This document shows, in pieces, positions 1-58,088 of a DNA stretch of 64,000 nucleotides. The notes below the pieces were generated by a model, which saw only the letters and a list, made by a program, of their open reading frames with translations, made no database searches and was not told the origin of the DNA. The translations under genes were made by a program, and so were the position numbers. The stretch's first letter is position 1, and the number at the start of each line of letters is the position of its first letter. This DNA comes from a virus: the IMG/VR virus record IMGVR_UViG_3300030343_000012; one strand, written 5' to 3'.

Positions 1-142
1 TTAATTCATTTGCATAATCCAATTCTAATGTAGGATCTTCTTCACTCTCAATCACCTCTTTTATTGAAGCATCACAAGCAACAGGATACTTAGCAATAAC
101 TAGCCACCAATTTCCATTAAGAAATTCTTCTTTAGATATCAT
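1..142 (-). CDS. small hypothetical protein (~47 aa; MISKEEFLNGNWW...)
   Basis: Minus-strand ATG at 140-142 overlaps the sigma-factor stop (TAATG) and the stop codon sits at 1-3. Below the ORF-track size cutoff. Confidence 0.3.
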   Translation of the reverse strand, partial: MISKEEFLNGNWWLVIAKYPVACDASIKEVIESEEDPTLELDYANEL

Positions 143-987
143 TATATTAATTTAGATAATTGTAAATTGCATCTCTTTCTTATTCTATCTAAAGCCTTTT
201 CCTTTATCTGTCTAACTCTTTCAACACCGATACCAAACATGTCTCCTACTTCTTGTTTAGACATAGGATTCATTCCTATACCAAATAGCATAATGATAAT
301 ATCATGTTCTCTAACAGGAAGTACATCTAGACATTTACATATTTCTTTATTAATGAAACTCTTATTAACTTGTTCATCAAGAGGTAGTTCTCCATCCGGA
401 ATCACATCACACACTTGACTATTTTCTTCATCCCCGCCAATAAAATCATCAACACTGACTAATCTGTTAGAAAATTGTGCTAAATAATCTATTTGCTTTT
501 CAGGAATATTAGTTAAAGTGTGTAATTCATTTGTGGTTGGATTTCTACCATTCTTTTTGATAAACTCATTAGTAGCTCTTAATATTTGAATTACTTTTAA
601 GTGTTGAGTTACCGGTAATCTAATCTCACGACCATACCAATATATGGTAGTATAAATACATTGTTTTATCCACCAAGCAGAATAATTAAGAAATTTAACA
701 CCTCTAGTTGGGTCAAACTTATTTACAGATTTACATAAGCCTTCCAATCCTGAAGATATTAAATCCATAAGAGGAATACCTCTATTTTGAAACTGCTTAG
801 CTATAGTTACTACAAATCTTAAATTAGAAGTAATTACTTTTTCTCTTGCCTTTTCATCTCCATTTTGAGCTTTAATGATTAATTCATTTATTTCTTCATT
901 ATCTAATATTTTATATTTAGATATATCTCGAAAATAACTCTGAAGTAGAGAGTCAGACTTGTCAGAAAAAATAACTCTTTTATTCAT
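142..987 (-). CDS. sigma-70 family RNA polymerase sigma factor
   Basis: Region 2-like DLISSGLEGLCKSVNKFDPTRGVKFLNYSAWWIKQ and region 4 HTH-like SKQEVGDMFGIGVERVRQIKEKALDRI are present, with a sigma-70-like domain order. Confidence 0.85.
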   Translation of the reverse strand: MNKRVIFSDKSDSLLQSYFRDISKYKILDNEEINELIIKAQNGDEKAREKVITSNLRFVVTIAKQFQNRGIPLMDLISSGLEGLCKSVNKFDPTRGVKFLNYSAWWIKQCIYTTIYWYGREIRLPVTQHLKVIQILRATNEFIKKNGRNPTTNELHTLTNIPEKQIDYLAQFSNRLVSVDDFIGGDEENSQVCDVIPDGELPLDEQVNKSFINKEICKCLDVLPVREHDIIIMLFGIGMNPMSKQEVGDMFGIGVERVRQIKEKALDRIRKRCNLQLSKLI

Positions 988-4165: not shown

Positions 4166-4482
4166 TATGCAAATTCATCATCCGAAGCAACAGATTTGAA
4201 ATATTCACACAGAAAGTTGGCATATACTTGTGATTGTGCTTCACTATAGCTATTATCGAAATAGAATTGAAAACAATGGAGAAGTTCATGCCAAAATGTA
4301 TTGGTTATTTGATCTTCTGTCAACTTCACCACAGTTTTATCCTCTAATTCTATAGTCTTAGCTATAGTTATAGTATTGGTAGCATCGCACCAATTTCCAT
4401 AATTATTATTATCTGTTTTTTCTACTAATTCTACTTTAATAGTATTTCCAGCACACTTAAACTCACTTGGCAATTGCATCAA
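4165..4482 (-). CDS. hypothetical protein with HEXXH motif (possible small metallopeptidase)
   Basis: WHELLHCFQF contains HExxH. Confidence 0.45.
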   Translation of the reverse strand: MMQLPSEFKCAGNTIKVELVEKTDNNNYGNWCDATNTITIAKTIELEDKTVVKLTEDQITNTFWHELLHCFQFYFDNSYSEAQSQVYANFLCEYFKSVASDDEFA

Positions 4483-4861
4483 TAATTTTCATTACTTGTT
4501 CAGGAGTCATCTTATATATGTCTTCAGAATCTTTTAAATTTGCTCTGTCTTCTAAATAGTTAAGCAAATCATCCATTACATCTAAGGTGCCTATTGGCAA
4601 ATGATTCTTAATAACAGAATATTCTATATCAGAAAGTTCTACTGGTTCAAATTGTAATAAATCTAAACCATATTCTTGACCTTGGTACACCTCATATTCC
4701 CAGGCTTCATTAGAACCAAACCCCTTTGTAGTAAATGCACTACCTAATTTAAGTTTAGCATACATATAGATGCGATACATATCTTCATCTAATAGTTCAT
4801 AGAAAGGCATATCAAATTCATCACACCAATCTACACTATAGTTAATTAAATAATGTTTCAT
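4463..4861 (-). CDS. hypothetical protein
   Basis: ORF in the array. Confidence 0.5.
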   Translation of the reverse strand: MKHYLINYSVDWCDEFDMPFYELLDEDMYRIYMYAKLKLGSAFTTKGFGSNEAWEYEVYQGQEYGLDLLQFEPVELSDIEYSVIKNHLPIGTLDVMDDLLNYLEDRANLKDSEDIYKMTPEQVMKIIDAIAK

Positions 4862-31609: not shown

Positions 31610-32389
31610 TTAATTATCAAGTCCTACTAATGTTGATGAGTTACCTGTAACCTTAGGAAGATGTCCGTCCCAAGCTTCAATCCACTGCTTCTTAACAAGC
31701 AATGGTGTAAGAGAAGCATTTACAATGGCATTAGCTTTAGCTTCTGCTTCAGCTACTACAATCTTCTTCTTTGCCTCTGCTTCAGCTACTTGTACTTCAT
31801 TAGCTGCTTTCTGTGCTAACTGAATAGCTCTATTCTTAGCATCTACAGCTTCTACAATAGTCTTAGGATATTGCAAACCACTAGTAAACTGGTCAAGTAC
31901 AAATCCTTCCTTGTCAAGAAGTTTAGAAAGACGCTTCTCAATCGCTTGTTCTACAGCTTCACGATTTGACACAATCTGGTCTGTAGTAAATTTATTAATC
32001 TCAATGCGGCAAGCATCCTTTACATACTTAAATACAGGACCATTAATCACATCAGTTAATTCTTTGCGATACTTACGAAATACTTTTGGAGCAGCACCAT
32101 CCTTAACTTTAAGATTGACATTTGGATCAACTTTAAATTCGGAACCGTCCTTAGCATTAATTGTAAATGGTTCATAATCAATAGTCTGAACGTAAGTAGG
32201 ATACTCATATACTTCTTGAGTAGCTGGATTATAGAATACTCGTCCAGTTACCATAGATACATCATCTACACCTCTTTCAGAGCCATAGAGATTAACTAAG
32301 ATACCTTCACAACCAGCATCAATACGTTCACAACTAGTAAAGCTTAATGATAACATTAAAGCACTCGCAAATAAAAAGACTTTTCTCAT
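31610..32389 (-). CDS. SPFH/band-7 (prohibitin-like) lipoprotein
   Basis: Lipobox LSFTSC signal and an Ala/Glu-rich C-terminal stretch QLAQKAANEVQVAEAEAKKKIVVAEAEAKANAI typical of SPFH proteins. Confidence 0.55.
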   Translation of the reverse strand: MRKVFLFASALMLSLSFTSCERIDAGCEGILVNLYGSERGVDDVSMVTGRVFYNPATQEVYEYPTYVQTIDYEPFTINAKDGSEFKVDPNVNLKVKDGAAPKVFRKYRKELTDVINGPVFKYVKDACRIEINKFTTDQIVSNREAVEQAIEKRLSKLLDKEGFVLDQFTSGLQYPKTIVEAVDAKNRAIQLAQKAANEVQVAEAEAKKKIVVAEAEAKANAIVNASLTPLLVKKQWIEAWDGHLPKVTGNSSTLVGLDN

Positions 32390-36588: not shown

Positions 36589-36693
36589 AAATAGCTCACC
36601 TAAATTAATAGATGAGCTATATACTACAAGTAGGTTGACTTTGTAATAGGATCTTATTCTCTACCATTACTAGTTCTCTACTTTATTAATTAG

Positions 36694-36777
36694 TTGTCTA
36701 GGAGAGATTCGAACTCCCGAAGCTAAATAGCAGCTGATTTACAGTCAGCCGTGTTTGACCACTTCACATACTAGACA
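36694..36777 (-). tRNA. tRNA-Tyr (anticodon GTA), class II with a long variable arm
   Basis: Folded by hand: acceptor TGTCTAG/CTAGACA, anticodon stem GCTGA/TCAGC with loop CTGTAAA, variable hairpin GCTA-TT-TAGC and T-arm GGGAG-TTCGAAT-CTCTC. Confidence 0.7.
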
Positions 36778-36795
36778 ATAAATTTTTTTATAAGT

Positions 36796-36864
36796 TGCGG
36801 ATGTTCGATTCGAACGACTACTCTAGGTTATGAGCCTAGTATGTTACCATTACACCACATCCGC
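36796..36864 (-). tRNA. tRNA-Met-like (anticodon CAT; could be initiator, elongator or Ile-lysidine type) with a shortened T-stem
   Basis: Acceptor GCGGATG/CATCCGC, D-stem GTGT/ACAT and anticodon stem CTAGG/CCTAG with loop CTCATAA. The T-loop TTCGAAT is flanked by only a 3-bp stem, giving 69 nt in total. Confidence 0.45.
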
Positions 36865-37043
36865 GATATATTGTTTTAAAGAATTTTCGGCGGAGCAAAG
36901 TCTTTAAGTACCATCTATCGATGACTTTTTATAAGGTTCTCTTAACCTTCGACATGACTATATTATGAGTAACGTTACCTCTCTTTTCAATGCCCCTTGA
37001 GTTAAAATACTTCTTTGGTACATGCTCCATATTAAATATAAAG

Positions 37044-37115
37044 AGCTTCAAGTAGGATTTGAACCCACGACCTGCACTTTACAAGAGTGCTGCACTACCA
37101 CTGTGCTATTGAAGC
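37044..37115 (-). tRNA. tRNA-Thr (anticodon TGT)
   Basis: Acceptor GCTTCAA/TTGAAGC, D-stem GCAC/GTGC, anticodon stem GCACT/AGTGC with loop CTTGTAA, and T-arm GTGGG-TTCAAAT-CCTAC. Confidence 0.8.
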
Positions 37116-37260
37116 TAAAATAAAGACGAATATGGCATTAGACGGGTGAACTATCATGACCATATTCTAATAATACATTGAGCTATCAGGCATACTCGTG
37201 GATCACCACCGCTACCTCTAACAACCGCCTAGTTAAATGCTAGGTCCTCTCCATTATTTG

Positions 37261-37333
37261 TGGACCGTGTCGGACTTGAACCGCAATGATTGCTTGCAAA
37301 GCAATAGTGTTAGCCAGTTACACTACACAGCCC
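37261..37333 (-). tRNA. tRNA-Ala (anticodon TGC) with G3:U70 pair and a shortened T-stem
   Basis: Acceptor GGGCTGT/ACGGTCC includes a G3-T70 wobble, the Ala identity element. D-stem GTGT/ACAC, anticodon stem ATTGC/GCAAT with loop TTTGCAA. T-loop TTCAAGT has a 3-bp stem and there is one extra nucleotide in the 8-9 linker. Confidence 0.5.
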
Positions 37334-37349
37334 ATTTCTAGTATTTTTG

Positions 37350-37426
37350 CGGAATATAAGGGACTCGAACCCTTAGTTTTACTAGAGTGACAGTCTAGTT
37401 CCCTTACCAACAGGGCTTAATACTCC
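37350..37426 (-). tRNA. tRNA-Asp (anticodon GTC)
   Basis: Acceptor GGAGTAT/ATATTCC (one G-U), anticodon stem CTAGA/TCTAG with loop CTGTCAC, and T-arm AAGGG-TTCGAGT-CCCTT. Confidence 0.65.
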
Positions 37427-37717
37427 AGGCGCCTCTTGTGTACACATTTCTTTTCGAGAAGGTAATGAACCTTAGAAATAAGAGGCATATATTTAAATTT
37501 ACTCTTCCAACATCAGTAAGTACCCATTTGGCACTTACTAGTAGAAATCTAATTAGATTACTGTAAAAGGCAATACTCGATAATCTCTAACATCATACCA
37601 AGCTGCTACAGTTTTCATTCCTTTCCACCATGATTTGATAATTCTTTTCATACAGTTTAAAATTTAATTGTTAATTAAATAATCTAATTGTATAGAAGGA
37701 AGAAGAAGTAAACATCG

Positions 37718-37789
37718 TGCAGAAAACCGGATTCGAACCGACAAATCCTGCTTGGAAGGCAGGCATGTTACCATTAACACCATTTCTGC
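37718..37789 (-). tRNA. tRNA-Gly (anticodon TCC)
   Basis: Acceptor GCAGAAA/TTTCTGC, D-stem GTGT/ACAT, anticodon stem CCTGC/GCAGG with loop CTTCCAA, and T-arm GTCGG-TTCGAAT-CCGGT. Confidence 0.75.
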
Positions 37790-38472: not shown

Positions 38473-38626
38473 ATATAGTATTTATTAGAGGGCATAATAC
38501 TATAAATAAAGTTAGCAAATTTATTTCTACTTTCTTAAGGTCCATGCGATAACTAATGTAGAAGCAACTTGCAAGATATATTACTATGCAAATAAGTCCT
38601 ATAATAAGTAACTCTCCAAAACTCAT
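38405..38626 (-). CDS. small membrane protein (2 TM)
   Basis: Hydrophobic 73-aa ORF whose start overlaps the PurA-like stop. Confidence 0.4.
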   Translation of the reverse strand: MSFGELLIIGLICIVIYLASCFYISYRMDLKKVEINLLTLFIVLCPLINTICALYFVHKNSDYKKSIEKLFND

Positions 38627-39807
38627 AATTCTTTAATATCAGAATCTTCAGACTTTCCTAGATATATATCATTTATAATACAATTACTTGTACGTAATTG
38701 TTCTATAAAACGTATTATACCGATAATTCTTGGAGATTTATCTTGATAATCACATATAGTAGGAATGTACTTAGTCTTAAGGCAATCCCAATGAGTTATG
38801 ACAATGTTAAACTTACAATGATATGTCTCACTATAATTATCTAAACAATGTCTTTCTACAGCTCTTTTAAACAAAGGATAGTCAAAAGGACCTGTTTTAA
38901 ACTCTCCTTGTGGTCCATCGTTAGTATTTGATGGTTCTTCTAGAGTAAAATACATTCCTAAGTCCATAGAATAAGGATTGTATCCATTTCCATGTCTAGT
39001 TAAATATGGACGCATAACTAAGTATACTTCTGCATTTTCTAGACACTTCTCTGGGATTCCATTTAATCCTACTTTACTAGGAGTACAGTGAGGCATAAAT
39101 CCTCTTTCCATATCTAGAAGAAGACCTTGTGAACCCTCCCAAATAACAGTATCAACCTCATCAGGATAATAAGTTCCGATTATAAAAGTCTCAGGATGTT
39201 CTTTAATAAAGGTACAAGCCTCTTTAAAAAGATCATCTAGTTTAGTGTCCCGTTCTAGATTATGATAATCCCTTACAGTCTGTAAAGCTACATCTGCATA
39301 TTCATCTGTATAAGGACACATACGAGCACTATAAGTTACATTATCTTTGTTTCTTTTAAAACAAGCATGTATACCTTTACCACAAGTTCCATTATACTTC
39401 ACTCGTCCATCCATAGAGTCAGCTAATACATCATAAGGTGTAATAACTCTACAGTTAGGATTTATATATAACTTAGGAACTTCAATACCCTCACTAACTA
39501 AGACTTTATATTCATTATAAATACATATTGGGTCAATGAATACTTCCTTATATAAGCAAGTTGGTACTCCTAGCAAAACACCGCTTCCCCAAGAAGAACA
39601 TACGTGTGATTTACCTTTATAAACCACACGATGACCGGCTTGTGGACCTCCACTAAATCTGATGACAACAGGTTTGTAACTATTCATACATAGCCATTGT
39701 ACTACATTACCCTTACCCTCATCACCAAATAGAGATCCAAGTACTATTTGATTACGAATTTGTTTGCTGTCCATAACTGTTAGAAACAATACGAGCAATA
39801 GATTCAC
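38623..39807 (-). CDS. adenylosuccinate synthetase homologue (PurA/PurZ-like); start probably MDSKQIRN at ~39774
   Basis: N-terminal NQIVLGSLFGDEGKGNVV matches the PurA P-loop NVVVLGTQWGDEGKGK. WEGSQGLLLDMERGFMP matches PurA EGAQGTLLDIDHGTYP. Length ~380 aa. Confidence 0.7.
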   Translation of the reverse strand: MNLLLVLFLTVMDSKQIRNQIVLGSLFGDEGKGNVVQWLCMNSYKPVVIRFSGGPQAGHRVVYKGKSHVCSSWGSGVLLGVPTCLYKEVFIDPICIYNEYKVLVSEGIEVPKLYINPNCRVITPYDVLADSMDGRVKYNGTCGKGIHACFKRNKDNVTYSARMCPYTDEYADVALQTVRDYHNLERDTKLDDLFKEACTFIKEHPETFIIGTYYPDEVDTVIWEGSQGLLLDMERGFMPHCTPSKVGLNGIPEKCLENAEVYLVMRPYLTRHGNGYNPYSMDLGMYFTLEEPSNTNDGPQGEFKTGPFDYPLFKRAVERHCLDNYSETYHCKFNIVITHWDCLKTKYIPTICDYQDKSPRIIGIIRFIEQLRTSNCIINDIYLGKSEDSDIKEL

Positions 39808-40564
39808 CTACATGCTCTTTATCTGAAATAATAAGATTGTCTCCTACATAAGGCTTCCAACTATCTGAAACCCTTTCTACACTATAATAACCATCATGTT
39901 CTACATGAATGTGATAAATATCCCACTTCTCAGCGCACTCTCTGTAAATGAAAGAGGTAGCTAAATCTTCACTACACTCATCACCTATATAATGAGTTAC
40001 TGCTTCTTTAGGAAGAGTTTTATGAATTGGCTCATCACTAATTGTGATTAAACAGCCTTTAATACCTCTTTTCTCCAGAGCATCGGTCTTAATATGATTA
40101 GCAGCGAAGTACCAACACATATGAGGATCTTCTCCTCCATTGCCACCTCCTTTACCTTCAAGGTCAACTTTACGGAGCCATTTCTCCATAAGTTCATCAC
40201 TTGATTCAAACTGTCCTACTTGTAAAGGAGCCTCTTCATAACAGCCCTCTACATCGCCAAATGCCATAAAACAGATTTGAGGATTATCAATACCTGCCTT
40301 CATAATACTAGCTACACAATCTGGTAAAGTATTATCAATAAGATATTTAGGCACTTTACCCATAGAACCAGTCTCATCCAAAGCAATAATGATAGGGAAT
40401 GATTCTGGGTGTTCTTCAGAATCACAAGACTCTCTGAAATTAATGTTAAGAGGATTCATTTCAGGGTCTAACTTTTTCTTGCTGAATGTCTTTTCAATAG
40501 ACTGAGATCTGTAACTATGACTTCTAGCTACAGCATCATTATACGAATAACTACCACATCCCAT
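39752..40564 (-). CDS. von Willebrand factor A (vWA) domain protein, TerY-like
   Basis: MIDAS-like IIIALDETGSMG (DxTGS) about 60 aa from the N-terminus; ~270 aa with a Rossmann-like hydrophobic periodicity. Confidence 0.55.
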   Translation of the reverse strand: MGCGSYSYNDAVARSHSYRSQSIEKTFSKKKLDPEMNPLNINFRESCDSEEHPESFPIIIALDETGSMGKVPKYLIDNTLPDCVASIMKAGIDNPQICFMAFGDVEGCYEEAPLQVGQFESSDELMEKWLRKVDLEGKGGGNGGEDPHMCWYFAANHIKTDALEKRGIKGCLITISDEPIHKTLPKEAVTHYIGDECSEDLATSFIYRECAEKWDIYHIHVEHDGYYSVERVSDSWKPYVGDNLIISDKEHVGESIARIVSNSYGQQTNS

Positions 40565-41625
40565 TACGCTTCCTCCTTTGCTTGTGATTTAATATTACTA
40601 GCTAATGCACTAACTAAAGCATTTACATTATCTGTAAGTGCATCTACCTTAGCATTAATTTTATCTAATTCCGATGGTTCTGAAGTTTCAGTAGCAGGTT
40701 TGCTTGCTGCACCAAACATATTACCAAACATATTACCACCTCCCATAAGCTGACTCATCATCATCATAGTCATAAAATCAGAACTATTATTATCAGCGAG
40801 AGCCATAAGCATCATAGGATTGAATCCCTTACCTGCATTATTAAATAGTCCACCACCATTCATAGCAGACATCATAAGCAGATTCTTAACATCAAATTTA
40901 TTTCCACTCATATAAGCAAGAGCAAGTGGATTAAATCCATTAGAAGAATCAAAGTTAAATGGATTGACAATAACTCTAAATGTTGCAGAACCCATCAACT
41001 CATCTTCAATAGCAATCTTATTGTTAATATTGCCATTAAAGTTCATAATCTTGATAGAACCATCTTCTGCTTTAGTCTTAACTACACCATAAGACCTGCC
41101 TGATTTTACAATATCTCCGATTACAATTTGATCAGAGTTCTTGCTAATATTGTAAATACAAGGCATAGGGAAAGTCATCTTATACTTCTTGAGTTTACCT
41201 GCCGGAGAAACGCCTACGTATGCACCGTCACTATTCTTAAAACAAAGAACACCATCAGTGATACTGATTCTAGCACTCTCCTCAGCCTGTGGCATAAACT
41301 CATTATACATATCTTTAGTTAAATCTCCAAAGACATTATCAACATTCATTTTTCCAAATTGTTCCATACTTGAAATATTTTTACTTATAGTATTAATTTG
41401 TTTACCATTAATCTCAGAAATTGTTACCGTCTCATAACTTTCTTGTTCTCTAGAACTTGCATAAGTCCAGACAACTTGAAACTTACTGTCATAACCTACA
41501 AGTTGTACTAAATCACCTCTTTTAAGCCCAGGACACTCATTAGCTACTATATAAGGTACAGTAGTTTCTGAATTCATTCTAGTAGGACTTAATTTAGTAT
41601 TTGTAAATATACCTCTAATTACCAT
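40564..41625 (-). CDS. hypothetical protein with a Gly/Met/Asn-rich low-complexity C-terminal region
   Basis: The C-terminus carries repeated NGGGLFNNAGKGFNPMMLMALADNNSSDFMTMMMMSQLMGGGNMFGNMFG. Confidence 0.5.
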   Translation of the reverse strand: MVIRGIFTNTKLSPTRMNSETTVPYIVANECPGLKRGDLVQLVGYDSKFQVVWTYASSREQESYETVTISEINGKQINTISKNISSMEQFGKMNVDNVFGDLTKDMYNEFMPQAEESARISITDGVLCFKNSDGAYVGVSPAGKLKKYKMTFPMPCIYNISKNSDQIVIGDIVKSGRSYGVVKTKAEDGSIKIMNFNGNINNKIAIEDELMGSATFRVIVNPFNFDSSNGFNPLALAYMSGNKFDVKNLLMMSAMNGGGLFNNAGKGFNPMMLMALADNNSSDFMTMMMMSQLMGGGNMFGNMFGAASKPATETSEPSELDKINAKVDALTDNVNALVSALASNIKSQAKEEA

Positions 41626-41627
41626 AA

Positions 41628-41855
41628 TTATAAACTATTAAGTATGCTTTTATATCTATCTAAATATTTAGAACCTAATGCAGACATTATTTTATAAAAT
41701 CCTGACCTAAATCCATCATCAGAACTAACTAATTGTTTTATGCTCTTTATATAATAATCAGGTATATCAGATCTACATTCATGTTGCATTAAGTTCCTAG
41801 CTAGTGCCATTTTATTTAATATTTCACCAGCTGCCTTAGCTTTATCTTCAGTCAA
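41628..41855 (-). CDS. hypothetical protein
   Basis: ORF in the array. Confidence 0.45.
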   Translation of the reverse strand: MTEDKAKAAGEILNKMALARNLMQHECRSDIPDYYIKSIKQLVSSDDGFRSGFYKIMSALGSKYLDRYKSILNSL

Positions 41856-41918
41856 GTTTAAATATAACTAAATATACTAATAAAAAGACCAAAGCTACTC
41901 CTAGAATATCTATAAACA

Positions 41919-42068
41919 TTCAAATAGCTCTAATAGATTTAAATGGATAACGTTTCTGATCATAGCTACTAATGAAGTTTTCTTTTACTTTAGCTTCATT
42001 AATACCTGTAAGTCTAATGGTTTGTTCTTTGTTTTTTAAAGAATCAAAATAAGTTACTTCAAATTTCA
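41919..42068 (-). CDS. small hypothetical protein (~49 aa, MKFEVTYFDSLKNKEQ...)
   Basis: Fills a 210-bp gap; below the ORF-track cutoff. Confidence 0.3.
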
Positions 42069-42473
42069 TATAAAAGATTCTCTATTATTAAATTTATTTT
42101 GAGCATCAAGTACTCCTTCTTTATCTGTAATATCTACAATAAGTCCTATTTGTCGTAACCAAACATCAAATGGACCACTGTACCCTAGGTCACCAACCCA
42201 ACCTCCTTTACAAAATACTATTTTCTTCCAAACAAAAATAGCACATAATATCCCATCAACTTCACATAAATGTTTGCCTTCTGGAATATCTAGGAATGTT
42301 GGAGCTAAACCTACTCCCTCTCGATAATATTTAGATATTCGAGTATGAAATACATCATCCTGCATAACTACTGCATCTGTCTCATAATTAGTAGACAATT
42401 TACCATGCAAATAAAAATCAGGCTGATAAATCCAATTCTCGTTTCGACTACTTAATGGCTTAAATTTAATCAT
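42066..42473 (-). CDS. hypothetical protein
   Basis: ORF in the array. Confidence 0.5.
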   Translation of the reverse strand: MIKFKPLSSRNENWIYQPDFYLHGKLSTNYETDAVVMQDDVFHTRISKYYREGVGLAPTFLDIPEGKHLCEVDGILCAIFVWKKIVFCKGGWVGDLGYSGPFDVWLRQIGLIVDITDKEGVLDAQNKFNNRESFI

Positions 42474-42574
42474 TTATGTTTCTTTTTCCATCGAAACCAT
42501 AAACCTAATACAATACCAATTATAAACCAAACTAGTATTGTAATAATAAAGGTTCCAATATTAAGTACAATCAT
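42472..42574 (-). CDS. very small single-TM peptide (~34 aa, MIVLNIGTFIITILVWFIIGIVLGLWFRWKKKHK)
   Basis: Lies immediately downstream of, and co-oriented with, the P-type ATPase. It has a hydrophobic helix followed by a basic tail. Confidence 0.35.
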
Positions 42575-42625
42575 AATCTAATATTTATAGAGAGGGCTAG
42601 CTATTAACCAGTCCTCTCTCGTTAA

Positions 42626-45085
42626 TTACTTGAATAACTTTTTAGCCCAATACAGGAGTTCTCTACAAACTGGTACAATTGCAGTAAGACCTACAATCTC
42701 CAACCATGTTTCAATACTTAATGGCTCTGTTCTGAACACATCGCCACCAAATTGAACTATCAAAATTTGACCAATAAATATAACCAAACATATTCCAATA
42801 AATGCAGGATTACTTAACAAACCATTAAAGATACTTCTGTCTTGTCCAAATACTCTTGCATTAAACAAGTTCCAGAATTGTAACATAACAAAAATAGTGA
42901 AGAACTCTGTAAGGCTATATGTATTACTAATCAGCAAATATAATAATATGCCGAAATACAAAATACCTACACCAAAGATTTCATACCACATTCTCTTTGT
43001 GATAATAAATGCCTTAGGATCACGTGGCTGTTCAGACATTACTGCTTCATTAGCTGGTTCTGTAGCCAATGCTAAAGCAGCAAAAGTATCCATAATTAAG
43101 TTAACCCATAGCATTTGGATAACAGTGAATGGTAAGTCTACCCCAATAAATGGACCTACACAAGCAATACCAATAGCTACAACATTTACAGTAAGCTGGA
43201 AAAGAATAAAGTGCTGAATATTCTTATACAAGCTTCTTCCCCACTTAACTCCTAAGATAACAGAAGGGAATGAATTATCAAGAAGAATAACATCAGCTGC
43301 ATTCTTAGCAATATCAGTACCATTATTCATAGCTACACCTACTTCAGCTTGGTTAAGAGCAGCTGAATCATTAGTTCCATCACCAGTTACAGCTACTACT
43401 TCTCCCATTCTCTGGAATCTCTTAACAAGTGTCTGCTTGTCTTCAGGTTTAGTTCTGGCAAATACATCTACTTTACGTAAATTAGTATCTGTCTGAGCTT
43501 CGACTTCCTTACCAAGCATTGTGTTAGGAGTCTGAGAGATATTAGCTTGAGCAGCGATAGAAGCAGCTGTTTCAGGATTATCACCTGTCACAATCTTAAC
43601 TTTAATTCCTGCGTTTCTAGCAGCCTGAATTGCATCAGGTACATTACTTCTTACTGGGTCTTCGATAGCTACGTAGCCATCCCATATGAAGTCTGAGAGG
43701 GTATTTATATCAGAACCAATCTTGTGTGCAAAAGCAATACATCTTCTGCCTTTAGATTGTTGTTCTGCAAAATTAGGTATGTTCTCATTAGAGCAGAAAT
43801 TCATTACTATTTCTGGAGCTCCCTTAATATAAGTAACTGCTCCATCACTAGTAATCATATATTTATTCTTAGAATTAAATTCTACTCTACCTGTTATATG
43901 AGTTTTATTTCTTTTATCGGTGATGTCAACTGACTTTTGTACATATTGCAGACAAGCACCCTCTGTAGGATTTCCTACTACTTCTCCTGCAGGACTAAGA
44001 TTAGCAGTAGAATTAAGTACAATATTATTTATGACAGCATTTCTATCTGTAAAGTCCTGGAATACTACTTTCATTTTATTCTCTGTAAGAGTTCCTGTCT
44101 TATCAGTAAGAATAAGAGTTGTAGCACCGAGAGTTTCACAAGCATGCATCTTTCTAATAAGGTTATTAGCTTTAGCCATTCTCTTCATAGAATAAGCAAG
44201 AGCAAGAGTTACCGCCATAGGTAAACCTTCTGGTACTGCTACTACAATAAGAGCTACTGCAATCATTAAGAATTGTAAGCAATCATTTACAATATCAATA
44301 GTATCTTTGCCTACATATCCTTGCTCTATAAATATATAACGTATAGCAAGAGACACAATAAGGATACCTGCAGCTGTGAATGCTATCTTATTAATTAAGC
44401 TAGCTAATCCATTAAGCTGTTTATTAAGAGGTGTTTCTACATCAGTAATAGAAGATGCTTCTCTAGCAGTCTTACCTACTTCTGTTTCATCTCCTACTGC
44501 AAATACTTCACCTACACAAGTACCCTCAGCTACAATAGTGCTTTTATAAATTCTATTTGTAGGATAGGTAGCAGTCTCTGATTCAAAATTAGTTTTAGTT
44601 ACAGGATTTGTTTCTCCAGTTAAAGAAGCTTCACTTACCTTCAAATTGCTATATTCTCTAACAATAATATCGGCAGGAACTTCTTCACCAGCTTCAAGTA
44701 TTACAATATCCCCTACAACTAAGTCTTTACGAGCTACTTGAATTACTCCATTATCTCGTCTTACCTTAACTAGAGTATCATCACTACTAGTTAAAAGAAG
44801 GTCAAACTTTTTAGCTGCTGACCAGGTATTCCAAAAACCAATACCTACAGCTAAAGCAATGGCTACAATAATACCAATAGGCTCTGTAAATTCACCCTTT
44901 ACAAATCCTAAGGCAATAGATACTGCAGCTGCAATAAGTAATATTACAATAAGTGGGTCTTTAAATCCATCAAGTAACATTACATACCAAGCATCTCTCT
45001 TCGGAGGTGTCAATACATTAATGCCATGTCTAGCACGTGAATCTTCTACTTCTGTTAAGCTAAGACCGTAATTTATATCTGTCAT
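42626..45085 (-). CDS. P2-type cation-transporting P-type ATPase (Ca2+-ATPase-like)
   Basis: Phosphorylation site DKTGTLT, TM4 PEGLP (VPEGLPMAVTLALA), TGDN (VTGDNPETAA) and hinge GDGTNDSAAL. About 10 predicted TM segments, no CPC metal motif, 819 aa. Confidence 0.9.
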   Translation of the reverse strand: MTDINYGLSLTEVEDSRARHGINVLTPPKRDAWYVMLLDGFKDPLIVILLIAAAVSIALGFVKGEFTEPIGIIVAIALAVGIGFWNTWSAAKKFDLLLTSSDDTLVKVRRDNGVIQVARKDLVVGDIVILEAGEEVPADIIVREYSNLKVSEASLTGETNPVTKTNFESETATYPTNRIYKSTIVAEGTCVGEVFAVGDETEVGKTAREASSITDVETPLNKQLNGLASLINKIAFTAAGILIVSLAIRYIFIEQGYVGKDTIDIVNDCLQFLMIAVALIVVAVPEGLPMAVTLALAYSMKRMAKANNLIRKMHACETLGATTLILTDKTGTLTENKMKVVFQDFTDRNAVINNIVLNSTANLSPAGEVVGNPTEGACLQYVQKSVDITDKRNKTHITGRVEFNSKNKYMITSDGAVTYIKGAPEIVMNFCSNENIPNFAEQQSKGRRCIAFAHKIGSDINTLSDFIWDGYVAIEDPVRSNVPDAIQAARNAGIKVKIVTGDNPETAASIAAQANISQTPNTMLGKEVEAQTDTNLRKVDVFARTKPEDKQTLVKRFQRMGEVVAVTGDGTNDSAALNQAEVGVAMNNGTDIAKNAADVILLDNSFPSVILGVKWGRSLYKNIQHFILFQLTVNVVAIGIACVGPFIGVDLPFTVIQMLWVNLIMDTFAALALATEPANEAVMSEQPRDPKAFIITKRMWYEIFGVGILYFGILLYLLISNTYSLTEFFTIFVMLQFWNLFNARVFGQDRSIFNGLLSNPAFIGICLVIFIGQILIVQFGGDVFRTEPLSIETWLEIVGLTAIVPVCRELLYWAKKLFK

Positions 45086-45106
45086 TTTTTCTGTTATTAT
45101 AATTAA

Positions 45107-45733
45107 TTAAAGAAATGAAATTGTTGGACGCTTCATAGCATCAATTGAAGTCCAACCTCCGAACTCACCAACTGCCTTAAAGCGCCATTCACCATCCTTT
45201 TTATAGGCAACACCAAGGATAACTGCCTGCTTATCAGAAATCTTAGTACCTTCCTTACCGTCTTCAAGATTAAACTTAGCTAAGACATTTACAGGAGTAT
45301 TAGTGTTTCTCTGTACTCTATCACCTGTATAAATACGAAGACCCATATAAGGAATCTCACCAAATGTCTGGTGTGTAAAGTTATTGAGAGTAAATGCAAT
45401 ATACTCAACACGTGGGTCAAGCTCATTTAAGCGTACCTCAATAGTCTCATTATCAAGACCATCATTACCATTTGTATCACCCGAACGATCATCACCACTA
45501 TGACGAATACCTGGAGCACTTAAATTGTAATAAGCTACTTCGCCAATACAATTCTTATTAGCATCATACAGAAGAACAGTAGAATCCAAATCTACCTTCT
45601 CGATAGAACCGCCAATGCCAAATAAACCCTTACGTCTGATAGCTCCCCAGTTTGAACCAAAGAATAATTTACTCAAACCATTGTTAGACTCTTTAGACAG
45701 ATTGATTCTGCCACCTTTACTTAAATTAATCAT
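45107..45733 (-). CDS. TerD-domain protein (Ca2+-binding, tellurite-resistance TerD/TerE family)
   Basis: SGDDRSGDTNGNDGLDNETIEV matches the TerD Ca-binding signature GDNxTGEGDGDDE. N-terminal INLSKGGRINLSK is also typical. Confidence 0.75.
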   Translation of the reverse strand: MINLSKGGRINLSKESNNGLSKLFFGSNWGAIRRKGLFGIGGSIEKVDLDSTVLLYDANKNCIGEVAYYNLSAPGIRHSGDDRSGDTNGNDGLDNETIEVRLNELDPRVEYIAFTLNNFTHQTFGEIPYMGLRIYTGDRVQRNTNTPVNVLAKFNLEDGKEGTKISDKQAVILGVAYKKDGEWRFKAVGEFGGWTSIDAMKRPTISFL

Positions 45734-45844
45734 AAAGCTTTATTAAATAATTGTGAATTACTAATTAACTAAAAATGGGAGTACCTAATTAAAGATACTC
45801 CCTTATAGAATCAAGAATTAAAACCGAATTAATTTATCAATTAA

Positions 45845-46447
45845 TTAAATAGCTGGGGCATCTGGCAAGATGAGTCCATAGTTACGAAGAATATCACGAT
45901 AGATAACATTCTGATAACTACCCTTGTCTTCTCCAAGAGCCTTGAACTTCCAATCACCATTGTGGCGATAAAGTTGGCAGAATACAACACAGCGAGACAT
46001 ACTTGCATCCTCAGTAAGATCAAACTTAGCCAAAGGAGTAGTGTTACCTTTAGCATACAAGTTGCAATAAGCATTGTTAACCATACCAAAGTTCTGCTGA
46101 CGATTCTTAGCATCGTGAATATTAACTAAGATGATAATTTTCTGGACATCTGCAGGAACCTTAGTAGTGTCTACTACAATTGTCTCATCATCTCCAGCAC
46201 CAGCACCTGTACGGTTATCACCTGAATGCTTAATAGCATCTTTCCAATTTGGGTTATTGTAGAAAATGAAACCATTGTCAGGATCTACTGCTTTATCCTG
46301 AGCATTCAAAGGAATAGTAGCTACATCCAAGTCAAATTCTACACCTGCCTGGGATGCTACATCCCAACCCAAACCAATTGAAAACTCTGTTACACCATTT
46401 GCTTCTTTAGCGAGGTTGATGTTACCTCCTTTACTTAATTGAATCAT
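45845..46447 (-). CDS. TerD-domain protein (paralogue)
   Basis: IQLSKGGNINL and HSGDNRTGAGAGDDETIVVD match the TerD signature. Confidence 0.75.
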   Translation of the reverse strand: MIQLSKGGNINLAKEANGVTEFSIGLGWDVASQAGVEFDLDVATIPLNAQDKAVDPDNGFIFYNNPNWKDAIKHSGDNRTGAGAGDDETIVVDTTKVPADVQKIIILVNIHDAKNRQQNFGMVNNAYCNLYAKGNTTPLAKFDLTEDASMSRCVVFCQLYRHNGDWKFKALGEDKGSYQNVIYRDILRNYGLILPDAPAI

Positions 46448-46461
46448 AATTGTGAATTGAA

Positions 46462-46653
46462 TTAATATTTACCGCAAAATTTACGGCTAATTATAGTCAT
46501 AACTTTATCATAAGTTAACTTTTTAGCTTCCTTCTCAGAATAACCTTCTATAATATAAGAATCTACTATTTTCTCAATTGCAGCATTCATTTCAGAGAAT
46601 AAGTATTTTTGTTCTTTAGTTAACTTATCATCATATAAATAAGATTTATTCAT
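46462..46653 (-). CDS. hypothetical protein
   Basis: ORF in the array. Confidence 0.45.
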   Translation of the reverse strand: MNKSYLYDDKLTKEQKYLFSEMNAAIEKIVDSYIIEGYSEKEAKKLTYDKVMTIISRKFCGKY

Positions 46654-46912
46654 CTACTTGTAAATCAGCCTGAGTACTTTCTATATAATCTTTTACATCT
46701 AAGTCTGTAATAAGATTAACTAAGTCTCCAACAGTCTTTAGATTCTGAACTTTATCATCTGTGATAGGATAACCAAACTCCTGTTCACACTCAGTAATAA
46801 TCTCTACTAAATCAAGACTGTCTGCATACAAATCATCGAAAGTATCTTCACTCTTGGCATCTACACCTAGTTCTTCATTAATTATATTAATGACCCTTGT
46901 TTCTATACTCAT
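46646..46912 (-). CDS. acyl carrier protein
   Basis: DDLYADSLDLVEIITECEQEFG contains the phosphopantetheine-attachment DSL motif in a ~88-aa acidic four-helix-type sequence. Confidence 0.7.
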   Translation of the reverse strand: MSIETRVINIINEELGVDAKSEDTFDDLYADSLDLVEIITECEQEFGYPITDDKVQNLKTVGDLVNLITDLDVKDYIESTQADLQVDE

Positions 46913-47304
46913 GCTTCAGGTCTTACTGGATAAATAGCGTCCTCGAAACCATCAATATCATCAGCATCAAGACCACTAATAGGCTTATCACTGAATAGCT
47001 GATTATGAATTGCTACGTCAATACTAATGGAGCGAGCAAGAATAACTAATTCTTCAGCTGCAGCATTAACATCTGTAGTGAATTTAACTGGATCAATACT
47101 TCTAATCTTAGAAGCAATATCCATAGTAGTGTCATCTCCGAGATCTAACAGAGAATCAAACTTCATTCTCTTGTTACGGAAATTCACCACTTTGCTCTGA
47201 ATGTTCTGTTCAGAGACACTTGCCATGTTCTTTAAGGCACTACTAACTCTAGAATCTTTTAAATCCTTAGTTGAAGCACCTACTACTTCTTTAATACTTT
47301 TCAT
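46909..47304 (-). CDS. hypothetical protein
   Basis: ORF in the array. Confidence 0.5.
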   Translation of the reverse strand: MKSIKEVVGASTKDLKDSRVSSALKNMASVSEQNIQSKVVNFRNKRMKFDSLLDLGDDTTMDIASKIRSIDPVKFTTDVNAAAEELVILARSISIDVAIHNQLFSDKPISGLDADDIDGFEDAIYPVRPEA

Positions 47305-52492: not shown

Positions 52493-52620
52493 CCGGTGGA
52501 GCATTGGAGAGTCGAACTCCAGTCACTCCGATTTGCATCAAAACATTCTTACAGCATAGGTTTTAAAGACTATCCTTGTCTGCTAGGGTTGACAAGATTA
52601 ACATATTGTCAACTTCCACC
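52493..52620 (-). ncRNA. tRNA-like structured element: T-arm TGGAG-TTCGACT-CTCCA plus an acceptor-like helix, 128 nt end to end, not a canonical cloverleaf
   Basis: Minus-strand sequence GGTGGAAGTTGACAA...GGAGTGACTGGAGTTCGACTCTCCAATGCTCCACC. GGTGGA pairs with TCCACC at the ends. An internal 7-bp hairpin TTGACAA/TTGTCAA is present. A local minihelix GGAGTGA/ATGCTCC plus T-arm is also possible. It sits in a ~740-bp region with no convincing CDS. Confidence 0.3.
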
Positions 52621-52992
52621 ACTCTGTTCCTAAAGTATACAGAGAACTTACAAAAGAAATGGAAAATAGTGCACCTTTCTGTTCCTAAGCAAGTGCTGCT
52701 CGGCTTCTCAGGCTGCGATAGCGTAAGAAGCGGAAGTGTTATTTACTTCGCCAATTAATTTTTTACTTGTCTATCCAAGTTGTCTTGCTGTGTTCCTTAT
52801 CTCCTCGAAGTTCAAAACCACGAATGCCCCATTTAAAAGAGTCCTAATAGAACTCTTTAATATCTTCTGATTCTTCTACTATATGGAGAACCCATATCAT
52901 ACCAATCATCTGGATCTATTCTATCTTCGTCACCCATAATCTAAAAATTAATTAATGTTAAAAACTATATGTTAATCTGTTTCTTTTCGGAA

Positions 52993-57755: not shown

Positions 57756-58088
57756 CTAATCTGTTACAACTTCCCAATCTTCTGCAAACACATCGCTAGA
57801 AGAAGGAACCCATGAATCTGCTCTACCATCGAGATTGATAATTAACATTTGATTGGTATAGTCAATGTGAGGATTGTCACGAGACATCAAGATGTCCTTA
57901 GCAGATTGAGGAAGCGATTGCATCTTAGGAATGATATCACCTTCAATGTGTGAAGGAACCTGCTTAACGATAAACAATCCTTTACCATTCCAACCGCTAC
58001 GACGGCAAGCTTTACCCTCTTTCAAAAACTGAATGGCATTTCCAAAATCAAAATGCCTATTTGCTAAATACTCATTATTTTCTGTCAT
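57756..58088 (-). CDS. hypothetical protein
   Basis: ORF in the array. Confidence 0.5.
   Translation of the reverse strand: MTENNEYLANRHFDFGNAIQFLKEGKACRRSGWNGKGLFIVKQVPSHIEGDIIPKMQSLPQSAKDILMSRDNPHIDYTNQMLIINLDGRADSWVPSSSDVFAEDWEVVTD

Follow-up and report, generated by a model that had tools for sequence, protein, structure and literature searches.

Ter systems of jumbo phages were reviewed in 2021 (PMC7824862), and in 2026 Ca2+ P-type ATPases together with multiple TerD genes were described in huge phages of the gut, including four pump-encoding phages of 159-197 kb (PMC12880540). In the Jug phages among them the pump is highly transcribed and one TerD gene lies beside a pspA-like gene; the authors hypothesized that the pump optimises the infected cell, and their main text draws no link between TerD and the pump and mentions neither adenylosuccinate synthetase nor vWA proteins (PMC12880540). 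The biochemical role of TerD has long been unclear and Ca2+ binding is the main lead: PMC8123226 cites Ca2+ binding by Klebsiella TerD and a Streptomyces TerD gene in Ca homeostasis. Here we analysed a stretch of 64,000 nucleotides of phage DNA (the window) from the IMG/VR record IMGVR_UViG_3300030343_000012, in which two TerD genes, a Ca2+-type pump gene, a gene for a protein with a von Willebrand factor A (vWA) fold, a gene for a PurA-like enzyme and an acyl carrier protein (ACP) gene lie close together. An earlier note on this DNA had read them as a single dispersed Ter-like module and had considered the combination unusual in a phage. The latter was overstated, since TerD is found in 133 GenBank phage records and both phage Ter systems and phage pumps have been published. 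The genes listed there are all present on the minus strand within 8.7 kb, and our analysis indicates that they probably make up two functionally independent units side by side, the TerD genes with the pump (Unit A) and the vWA-like with the PurA-like gene (Unit B, or the cassette), together with variable filler genes that include the ACP gene.

Loci were gathered for each anchor component and their neighbours were scored by tblastn. A P-type ATPase was found nearby in 67 of the 79 TerD-bearing viral loci, nearly always adjacent to TerD and separated from it by 16-973 nt, apart from a single gap of 3.9 kb. The link was detected in five lineages: the window family (G1), the locus L017, a second clade of ~180-195 kb with pumps of 61-66% identity (G2), the 306 kb contig L069 with a pump of 49% identity and a set of 27 loci (G6) in which a pump of ~30% identity is followed by TerD genes and then by a PspA/IM30-like protein. 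Two gene orders are represented, TerD-TerD-pump and, in the G6 locus L082, pump, three TerD genes and a PspA-like gene. The canonical TerD protein of the window (TerD-a), its divergent paralogue (TerD-b) and the pump are kept together in G1, G2 and L069, and the TerD-a and pump sequences are identical in the ~183 kb phage contig from a human-gut dataset to which the window belongs, IMGVR_UViG_3300045988_081687. A viral scan anchored on the ATPase used clade-specific patterns and returned only relatives. No P-type ATPase was found within 10 kb of TerD at any of 80 bacterial loci, mainly from Proteobacteria and Cyanobacteria. These data support TerD and a Ca2+-type pump as a genuinely linked unit that recurs in divergent phage lineages, and the adjacency pointed out in the earlier note is real.

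The vWA-like and PurA-like genes show an association of their own. We examined 80 vWA-anchored viral loci of varied environmental origin. A PurA-like gene lies on the same strand in 78 of them, within ~1 kb downstream in 74, and in the two unpaired loci the sequence stops within 200 nt past the vWA gene. In the window the two genes overlap by 23 nt and are translationally coupled; the PurA-like open reading frame (ORF) as listed opens at a GTG at 39807, relatives align from residue 10 or later, and the ATG at 39774 is probably the true start. The cassette occurs in large phages whose hosts span at least four phyla and in more than 1,700 phage protein clusters, cultivable mycobacteriophages included. 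In Mycobacterium phage Ghost the pair consists of gp261 and, after it, gp263, annotated as a "PurA-like adenylosuccinate synthetase", and the pairing is also present in Vibrio phage phiKT1024 and Rhizobium phage RHph_TM40; GenBank annotators have labelled the PurA-like gene adenylosuccinate synthetase. A literature search returned no paper on the pairing of vWA and PurA or on the mycobacteriophage PurA-like gene.

Comparison of the neighbourhoods across related phages, a check proposed in the earlier note, splits the supposed module into these two blocks. The locus L019 has a Unit A that is 93-98% identical, yet its u353 (the gene directly upstream of the vWA-like gene in the window), vWA-like and PurA-like genes are absent, while in L004 and L005 the vWA-like gene has been lost and the PurA-like gene is truncated. 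TerD and pump occur without the vWA/PurA pair in L020, L069 and the pump-bearing loci among L075-L102, and the pair occurs without TerD or pump in L041-L044. Outside the window family, TerD or a pump was found within 10 kb at none of 63 vWA-anchored loci. Divergence is also discordant between the blocks, as the PurA-like and vWA-like proteins of the window share 39-52% identity with their counterparts in distant megaphage cassettes and only 30-35% with those of G2, whereas TerD-a and the pump of G2 are 57-66% identical to those of the window. The order of genes in G1 is a gene resembling that of the ~126-aa protein (P126), ACP, u63, TerD, TerD, pump, u135, u75, u353, vWA and PurA, and in G2 it is P126, vWA, PurA, a spacer of 4-7 kb, TerD, TerD and pump. 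Since the blocks separate in natural variants, have diverged discordantly and lie in differing orders, a single dispersed Ter-like module is not supported; the clustering is non-random within each of the two sub-blocks only, not across them.

The ACP carries the DSL phosphopantetheine serine (YADSLDLVE in the translation) and falls below the NCBIfam AcpP equivalog cutoffs (61.8 against 71 bits), and so is not of the housekeeping AcpP type. Three close relatives (L015, L017, L030) and all lineages but G1 lack it, so that the ACP, counted as a module member in the earlier note, is a dispensable and variable accessory gene outside both conserved units. To look for Ter genes, the module, the genes around it and most of the other window ORFs of at least 90 aa were scanned against Pfam and PHROG. 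Among the ORFs scanned across the window there was no TerC, TerB, TelA, phosphoribosyltransferase, HAD or ATP-grasp protein, the only HAD-type matches being the P-domain of the pump itself.

TerD-a scored well above the Pfam TerD gathering cutoff of 25.3 bits and matched the solved TerD structures 3IBZ and 2KXT with 174-180 bits. Its Ca2+-binding loop GDNRTGAGAGDDE is intact when aligned to both structures and keeps the GDNxTGxGxGDDE pattern. TerD-b matched 2KXT with 50 bits, and its loop GDDRSGDTNGNDGLDNE has a 4-residue insertion and keeps the pattern in part only, so that the Ca2+-binding signature attributed to both proteins holds for TerD-a and only in part for TerD-b. The hairpin between the two genes has a 10-bp stem with 5 GC pairs, followed by ATTTTTAGTT; because this strong terminator-like structure lies 3' of TerD-a, TerD-a may be expressed above TerD-b and the pump. 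The pump scored 627.8 bits against the NCBIfam PMCA-type equivalog TIGR01517 (cutoff 507.05), contains four Pfam cation-ATPase domains, and its DKTGT, P285-E286-G-L-P and W660-V-N662-L-I-M-D666 motifs are invariant in alignment A4. The homologues in L020 and L082 also exceed the PMCA-type cutoff, the latter despite its ~30% identity. The PspA/IM30-like coiled-coil protein of L082 (11837-12604, plus strand) scored 25 bits, below the 34-bit cutoff, with near-full coverage of the profile. Directly 3' of the pump gene of the window, a previously unannotated ORF of 34 codons reads MIVLNIGTFIITILVWFIIGIVLGLWFRWKKKHK; a 36-aa counterpart is found at the same position in L015 and L017, its sequence diverged and its position kept, and the peptide may be a pump-associated micropeptide. 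In some close relatives the pump gene itself is split after residue 570, between GDG and TND, by a 1.1 kb insert with a 242-aa ORF (L115, L116 10001-13584). L116 also has a match to the group I catalytic intron model of Rfam (RF00028, 86 bits) at 4420-4676 (plus strand), upstream of the pump by ~5.5 kb.

Unit A would thus comprise TerD-a, TerD-b, the PMCA-type Ca2+ pump and perhaps the 34-aa membrane micropeptide. The pump is predicted to insert in the host inner membrane and to export cytoplasmic Ca2+ at the cost of ATP, because the equivalog threshold is passed and the Ca-site and phosphorylation residues are intact, and the cytosolic TerD proteins would bind Ca2+ through the GDNxTGxGxGDDE loop, by homology to Klebsiella TerD. 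Taken together, these two predicted activities suggest that TerD buffers or senses Ca2+ in concert with the pump. TerD and pump would then hold cytosolic Ca2+ low, or reset its level, during envelope stress in the infected cell, and the unit might also exclude superinfecting phage. The PspA-like neighbours in G6 and in the Jug phages and an SPFH/Band 7 gene of the window point to an envelope-stress theme. The latter encodes a membrane-scaffold protein (stomatin/HflK-like, 259 aa, window 31610-32389, minus strand, Pfam 1e-18) and may share this theme with the TerD-pump unit.

For the vWA-fold protein, no match was found in Pfam or NCBIfam (E<=0.01) or in PADLOC, and none of its 1,713 homologues has a Pfam domain. 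Its AlphaFold (AF2) model has a pLDDT of 92.5, and Foldseek matched it with probability 1.0 to the vWA domains of integrin βI and αI, vWF-A3, the SpaC adhesin and TFIIH p44/Ssl1, with a TMq of ~0.5 against those of integrin and vWF. The MIDAS-type motif D63-x-[TS]65-G-S67 and a later D177 are conserved across four host phyla, as are QFE, a GxGGG(N/Q)xxE loop and IxDE. The modelled structure confirms a vWA fold with a predicted MIDAS metal site. A vWA protein with a MIDAS-like motif, as described in the earlier note, is thereby upheld by predicted fold and motif and not by the VWA profile search; of the profiles proposed there, TerD, Adenylsucc_synt and PP-binding gave matches and VWA did not. 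It is not, in contrast, related to TerY, as there is no vWA/TerY profile match, no kinase or PP2C gene lies next to the vWA-fold gene in the window, and the family pairs almost always with a PurA-like gene, independently of TerD. We also observed that an N-terminal Met-Gly is invariant in the vWA-like family (usually MGGGSY; alignment A6, four host phyla), which could reflect N-terminal processing or provide a reactive glycine amine. In Bixzunavirus phages a Ser/Thr kinase gene abuts the vWA-like gene (Ghost gp260-gp261, L204 2709-4837), with none seen in other lineages, an adjacency that recalls the vWA-kinase associations of bacterial TerY-type systems.

The PurA-like protein belongs to a phage-specific subfamily of GTP-type ligases. 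The equivalents of E. coli Asp13, His41 and Gln224 are kept, with GD[EAS]GKG, GGxxAGH and EG[AS]QG invariant in alignments A2 and A5, and a THxD motif stands at the guanine-specificity position. In E. coli PurA, the elements formed by V273, T300, T301, R303 and R305 recognise L-aspartate and the IMP 2'-OH. A HMMER alignment revealed that V273 is replaced by His and TTGRRRR by xQGx[FMI][KR] in all vWA-paired phage proteins, and this remodelled signature is common to the proteins of gut, Mycobacterium, Vibrio and Rhizobium phages. The scores against the PurA equivalogs are 104 bits for NF002223 (cutoff 402) and 93 for TIGR00184 (cutoff 396). By its sequence the enzyme is neither PurA nor PurZ, and it keeps the phosphotransfer residues with what appears to be a remodelled aspartate pocket. 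In two loci the PurA-like gene is split within its P-loop codons, between GDE and GKG, by a 1.25 kb insert with a LAGLIDADG-like protein (L210, L221 10785-13196). The inserts in the pump and PurA-like genes look like mobile introns, which typically target conserved functional sites, and an endonuclease insertion exactly in the P-loop codons implies that this site is conserved and functional. Rfam searches of the split pump and PurA-like genes found no intron model at either site.

We propose that the PurA-like enzyme of Unit B would phosphorylate the O6 of a 6-oxopurine nucleotide with GTP, as PurA does, and would then join the activated nucleotide, IMP or a (deoxy)nucleotide related to it, to some amine that is not aspartate; alternatively, it may work only in complex with its vWA partner, with a composite site. 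Judged from the conserved residues, the most likely chemistry of the unit would be one of these two, activation with a non-aspartate amine or dependence on the vWA complex. In its specific form, that the cassette is an unrecognised two-protein enzyme coupling a GTP-activated 6-oxopurine (deoxy)nucleotide to a non-aspartate amine, the proposal is quite unlikely to be right as it stands. If true, the reaction would yield a non-canonical purine nucleotide, either N6-substituted or directly aminated, that would serve to modify DNA bases, to repair the nucleotide pool in the wake of deaminase-type defences, or to act as an immune signal or counter one, and the cassette would represent a second PurZ-like departure from canonical purine chemistry.

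Two more familiar identities have to be weighed for the PurA-like protein. A true adenylosuccinate synthetase, supplying AMP and dATP for an AT-rich genome with the vWA protein as a stabilising or regulatory subunit, would agree with the nucleotide-metabolism surroundings (NrdD, dUTPase and a dCTP-deaminase-like gene), the retained catalytic Asp, His and Gln and guanine-type THxD motif, the GenBank annotation and the genome of 31% GC. We consider this unlikely, since 104 bits fall far short of the 402-bit equivalog cutoff, the aspartate determinants V273, T300/T301, R303 and R305 of E. coli are replaced throughout the family, and cellular PurA shows nothing like the near-obligate association with a vWA protein; at the 80 bacterial TerD loci, a PurA match was found once and the vWA family never. 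As for PurZ, by which adenine would be replaced with 2-aminoadenine in the phage DNA, the best PHROG match (phrog_1211) is indeed named after a PurZ-type enzyme. We give this identity next to no credence and rejected it on residues, scores and companion genes: the P-loop Asp (GDEGKG) stands where S-2L PurZ has Ser23 by the dGMP 2-amino group (PMC8342488), the protein scored 38 bits against an NCBIfam PurZ cutoff of 300, its best solved-structure matches are bacterial PurA with no PurZ among them, and no HD-type DatZ or MazG-type MazZ was present among the window ORFs scanned.

At the level of the whole locus, the two TerD proteins, a TerY-like vWA protein, the PurA-like enzyme, the ACP and the pump might still form one metal-sensing system that makes a nucleoside-like metabolite. 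The shared strand within 8.7 kb, the location of the pair within 10 kb of TerD and pump also in G2, the presence of both a TerD gene and the vWA/PurA pair in Rhizobium phages of the RHph_TM group, and the description of jumbo-phage Ter systems with nucleotide-metabolite enzymes (PMC7824862) all speak in its favour. We nevertheless hold it to be very improbable, because the blocks part in natural variants and in all other lineages with discordant divergence, no vWA/TerY profile match and no other Ter-system gene was obtained from the scanned window ORFs, the ACP is dispensable, and in the ~205 kb genomes of the Rhizobium group TerD maps to ~93-94 kb and the pair to ~10 kb. A different question is what the TerD-pump unit serves. 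Superinfection exclusion or resistance to pore-forming toxins, rather than optimisation of the phage's own replication, would fit ter operons implicated in phage inhibition and colicin resistance (PMC8123226), the role proposed for jumbo-phage Ter genes by Iyer et al. (PMC7824862), the PspA-like membrane-repair gene that follows the TerD genes in L082 and lies beside TerD in Jug phages, and the SPFH/Band 7 gene of the window. PADLOC has no matching model, however, and the unit is placed among replication genes and not among lysogeny or moron genes. Exclusion as the purpose seems rather unlikely, and it concerns purpose only, being compatible with the mechanism proposed for TerD and pump.

Several observations weigh against two independent units as drawn here. 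In the related clades G1 and G2, no more than 10 kb separates the two units, and a lineage-specific functional connection between them in these clades is possible. Within Unit A, the terminator-like hairpin parts TerD-a from TerD-b and the pump. Jug phages keep their TerD genes and pump in separate operons (PMC12880540) and cultured phages carry TerD without such a pump, which indicates that TerD does not need a phage pump. The bacterial TerD sample is biased to Proteobacteria and Cyanobacteria and the likely gut hosts lie outside it, and a gut-host origin of the TerD-pump pairing is possible; the G6 loci are taken as phage on their IMG/VR classification. In Unit B, the remodelled aspartate pocket is deduced from alignment to E. 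coli PurA, and other residues could compensate.

The vWA-like gene is preceded by one of two partners, the ~126-aa protein P126 in 53 of 72 loci or a u353-type protein in 13, distant loci included (L225-L233, L276). For u353, no Pfam match was found, and its AF2 model (pLDDT 65) gave no significant match in the PDB and only uncharacterised phage proteins in BFVD. We observed in it two small beta-barrel domains, a Met/Gly/Asn-rich disordered stretch with repeated GFNP, and a C-terminal helix. The proteins P0047, P0012 and P0122 look like fusions of u353 with a vWA-like or PurA-like protein, which fits the overlapping stop and start codons of u353 and the vWA-like gene. A domain relationship between u353 and P126 was rejected (hhalign probability 0.07%). 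A 131-aa protein of the window matched the P126 family with an hhalign probability of 84% (E 7e-6, 101 columns) and is, from this profile comparison, a probable divergent member of it; because several close relatives have the pair but lack this gene, the link to the cassette is tentative. The idea that the TerD/pump block was inserted in an ancestral P126-vWA-PurA triad was weakened by the u353-type cassette of the window and by the absence of the P126-like gene from these relatives, and replacement of the cassette by a related one, or simple shuffling of the island, fits equally well.

The features of the region are listed in Table 1. All genes in the region lie on the minus strand of a genome of ~31% GC, and the start codon of the 135-aa ORF overlaps the stop codon of the 34-aa peptide. 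The large ORFs of the window encode NrdD, helicases, primase, ligases and exonucleases, and further genes encode dUTPase, the dCTP-deaminase-like protein, RNase H and a sigma factor; these replication and nucleotide-metabolism genes place the region in the early/middle replication part of a large phage. The sigma-70 family factor has regions 2, 3 and 4 (window 142-987, minus strand), and the phage's own transcription programme may be directed by it; a sigma-70 promoter scan of the module region was uninformative, with 41 sites against 42.8 expected by chance. A 110-aa protein with a Tad2-like (Thoeris anti-defence 2) domain is encoded at 57756-58088 of the window (minus strand, Pfam 1.1e-18), likely an anti-defence gene separate from the Ter/vWA question.

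Table 1. Positions of Unit A, Unit B and other features of the window
Feature	Position	Strand	Evidence or remark
TerD-a, canonical TerD-domain protein, 200 aa	45845..46447	-	Pfam PF02342, 199 bits
TerD-b, divergent TerD paralogue, 208 aa	45107..45733	-	Pfam TerD, 83 bits; 21 nt upstream of pump
PMCA-type (P2B-like) Ca2+-translocating P-type ATPase, 819 aa	42626..45085	-	TIGR01517
34-aa single-pass hydrophobic peptide, basic C-terminal tail	42470..42574	-	Directly 3' of pump; previously unannotated ORF
Terminator-like hairpin and T-run between TerD-a and TerD-b	45777..45802	-	Consensus scan
vWA-fold protein with MIDAS-type DxTxS motif	39752..40564	-	AlphaFold model and Foldseek
PurA-like GTP-type ligase, phage-specific subfamily	38623..39774	-	Pfam PF00709 (Adenylsucc_synt), 8e-35
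u353, 353-aa protein, alternative upstream partner	40564..41625	-	Directly upstream of vWA-like gene
131-aa protein, divergent P126 (probable)	46909..47304	-	Sole window ORF matching the family hidden Markov model, E 7e-5
ACP, 88 aa	46646..46912	-	PP-binding PF00550, 3e-13, 50 bits (cutoff 20.8)
63-aa ORF between ACP and TerD-a	46462..46653	-	No family match; kept only within window family
135-aa ORF 3' of pump	42066..42473	-	No family match; kept in G1 and L017 only
75-aa ORF	41628..41855	-	No family match; 2 nt upstream of u353; G1 and L017 only
tRNA cluster (six genes: Tyr, Met, Thr, Ala, Asp, Gly) and phage-encoded tmRNA (tag peptide GEVNNTSASYAIAA)	36693-37789 and 52495-52830	-	

The components of both units were already known; as far as the literature was searched, the adjacency of TerD and pump and the vWA/PurA-like cassette with a remodelled pocket are undescribed. 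The recurrence of the TerD-pump unit in different gene orders and with pumps of ~30% identity makes it genetically testable whether TerD buffers or senses the exported Ca2+. The unit extends the 2026 report of phage Ca2+ pumps and, if it is an operon of the kind proposed, would be the first genomic-context evidence for TerD working with Ca2+ transport. Large phages, from those of the Bacteroidota type in the gut to mycobacteriophages, commonly carry the cassette, which is annotated as plain adenylosuccinate synthetase. As it is present in cultivable, engineerable phages (the Bxz1 group), its chemistry should be quickly resolvable, and PurZ provides the precedent that PurA-type enzymes can rewrite nucleotide chemistry. 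The locus also calls for caution, since the proximity of genes in a phage accessory region need not mean one system.

Compared with the Jug phages, the pump of the window has the same four cation-ATPase Pfam domains, DKTGT motif and PMCA/LMCA1-like Ca site, and the phages share the gut habitat and multiple TerD genes per genome; the four pump-encoding phages of 159-197 kb in that report belong to the size class of the present phage. L082 resembles them further in having a TerD gene beside a pspA-like gene. The Jug pump is co-transcribed with an upstream protein of 77-91 aa and the TerD genes are in separate operons, whereas here and in four other lineages TerD abuts the pump, and here a peptide of 34-36 aa follows it. 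With the bacterial and jumbo-phage Ter systems of the Anantharaman/Iyer/Aravind model, the locus shares TerD proteins with a Ca2+-binding loop and a proposed role in membrane stress or exclusion. It differs from them in that TerC, TerB, TelA, TerF/TerY, phosphoribosyltransferase, HAD and ATP-grasp proteins are absent from the window ORFs scanned and a Ca2+ pump replaces the membrane component.

The PurA-like protein shares with PurA (E. coli 1ADE, Legionella 6BS7) the fold family, the Asp of GDEGKG, the His of GGxxAGH, the Gln of EGxQG and (T)HxD. It differs in its identity of ~26%, the failed equivalog cutoff, the changed V273/TTGRRRR elements, a shortened C-terminal region and the constant location of its gene beside a vWA gene. 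Like PurZ of S-2L and phiVC8, it is a phage-borne PurA homologue for which we propose an altered use of substrate; it keeps the P-loop Asp, unlike PurZ, which has Ser at this position, continues to use aspartate and shows synteny with DatZ and MazZ. A further known counterpart is gp261/gp263 of Bixzunavirus Ghost, a cassette of the same two genes in which both proteins bear the subfamily signature. Identity to the Ghost proteins is 24-36%, and Ghost has an abutting Ser/Thr kinase gene and a small ORF between the pair, whereas the gut-phage cassettes have u353 or the ~126-aa protein upstream.

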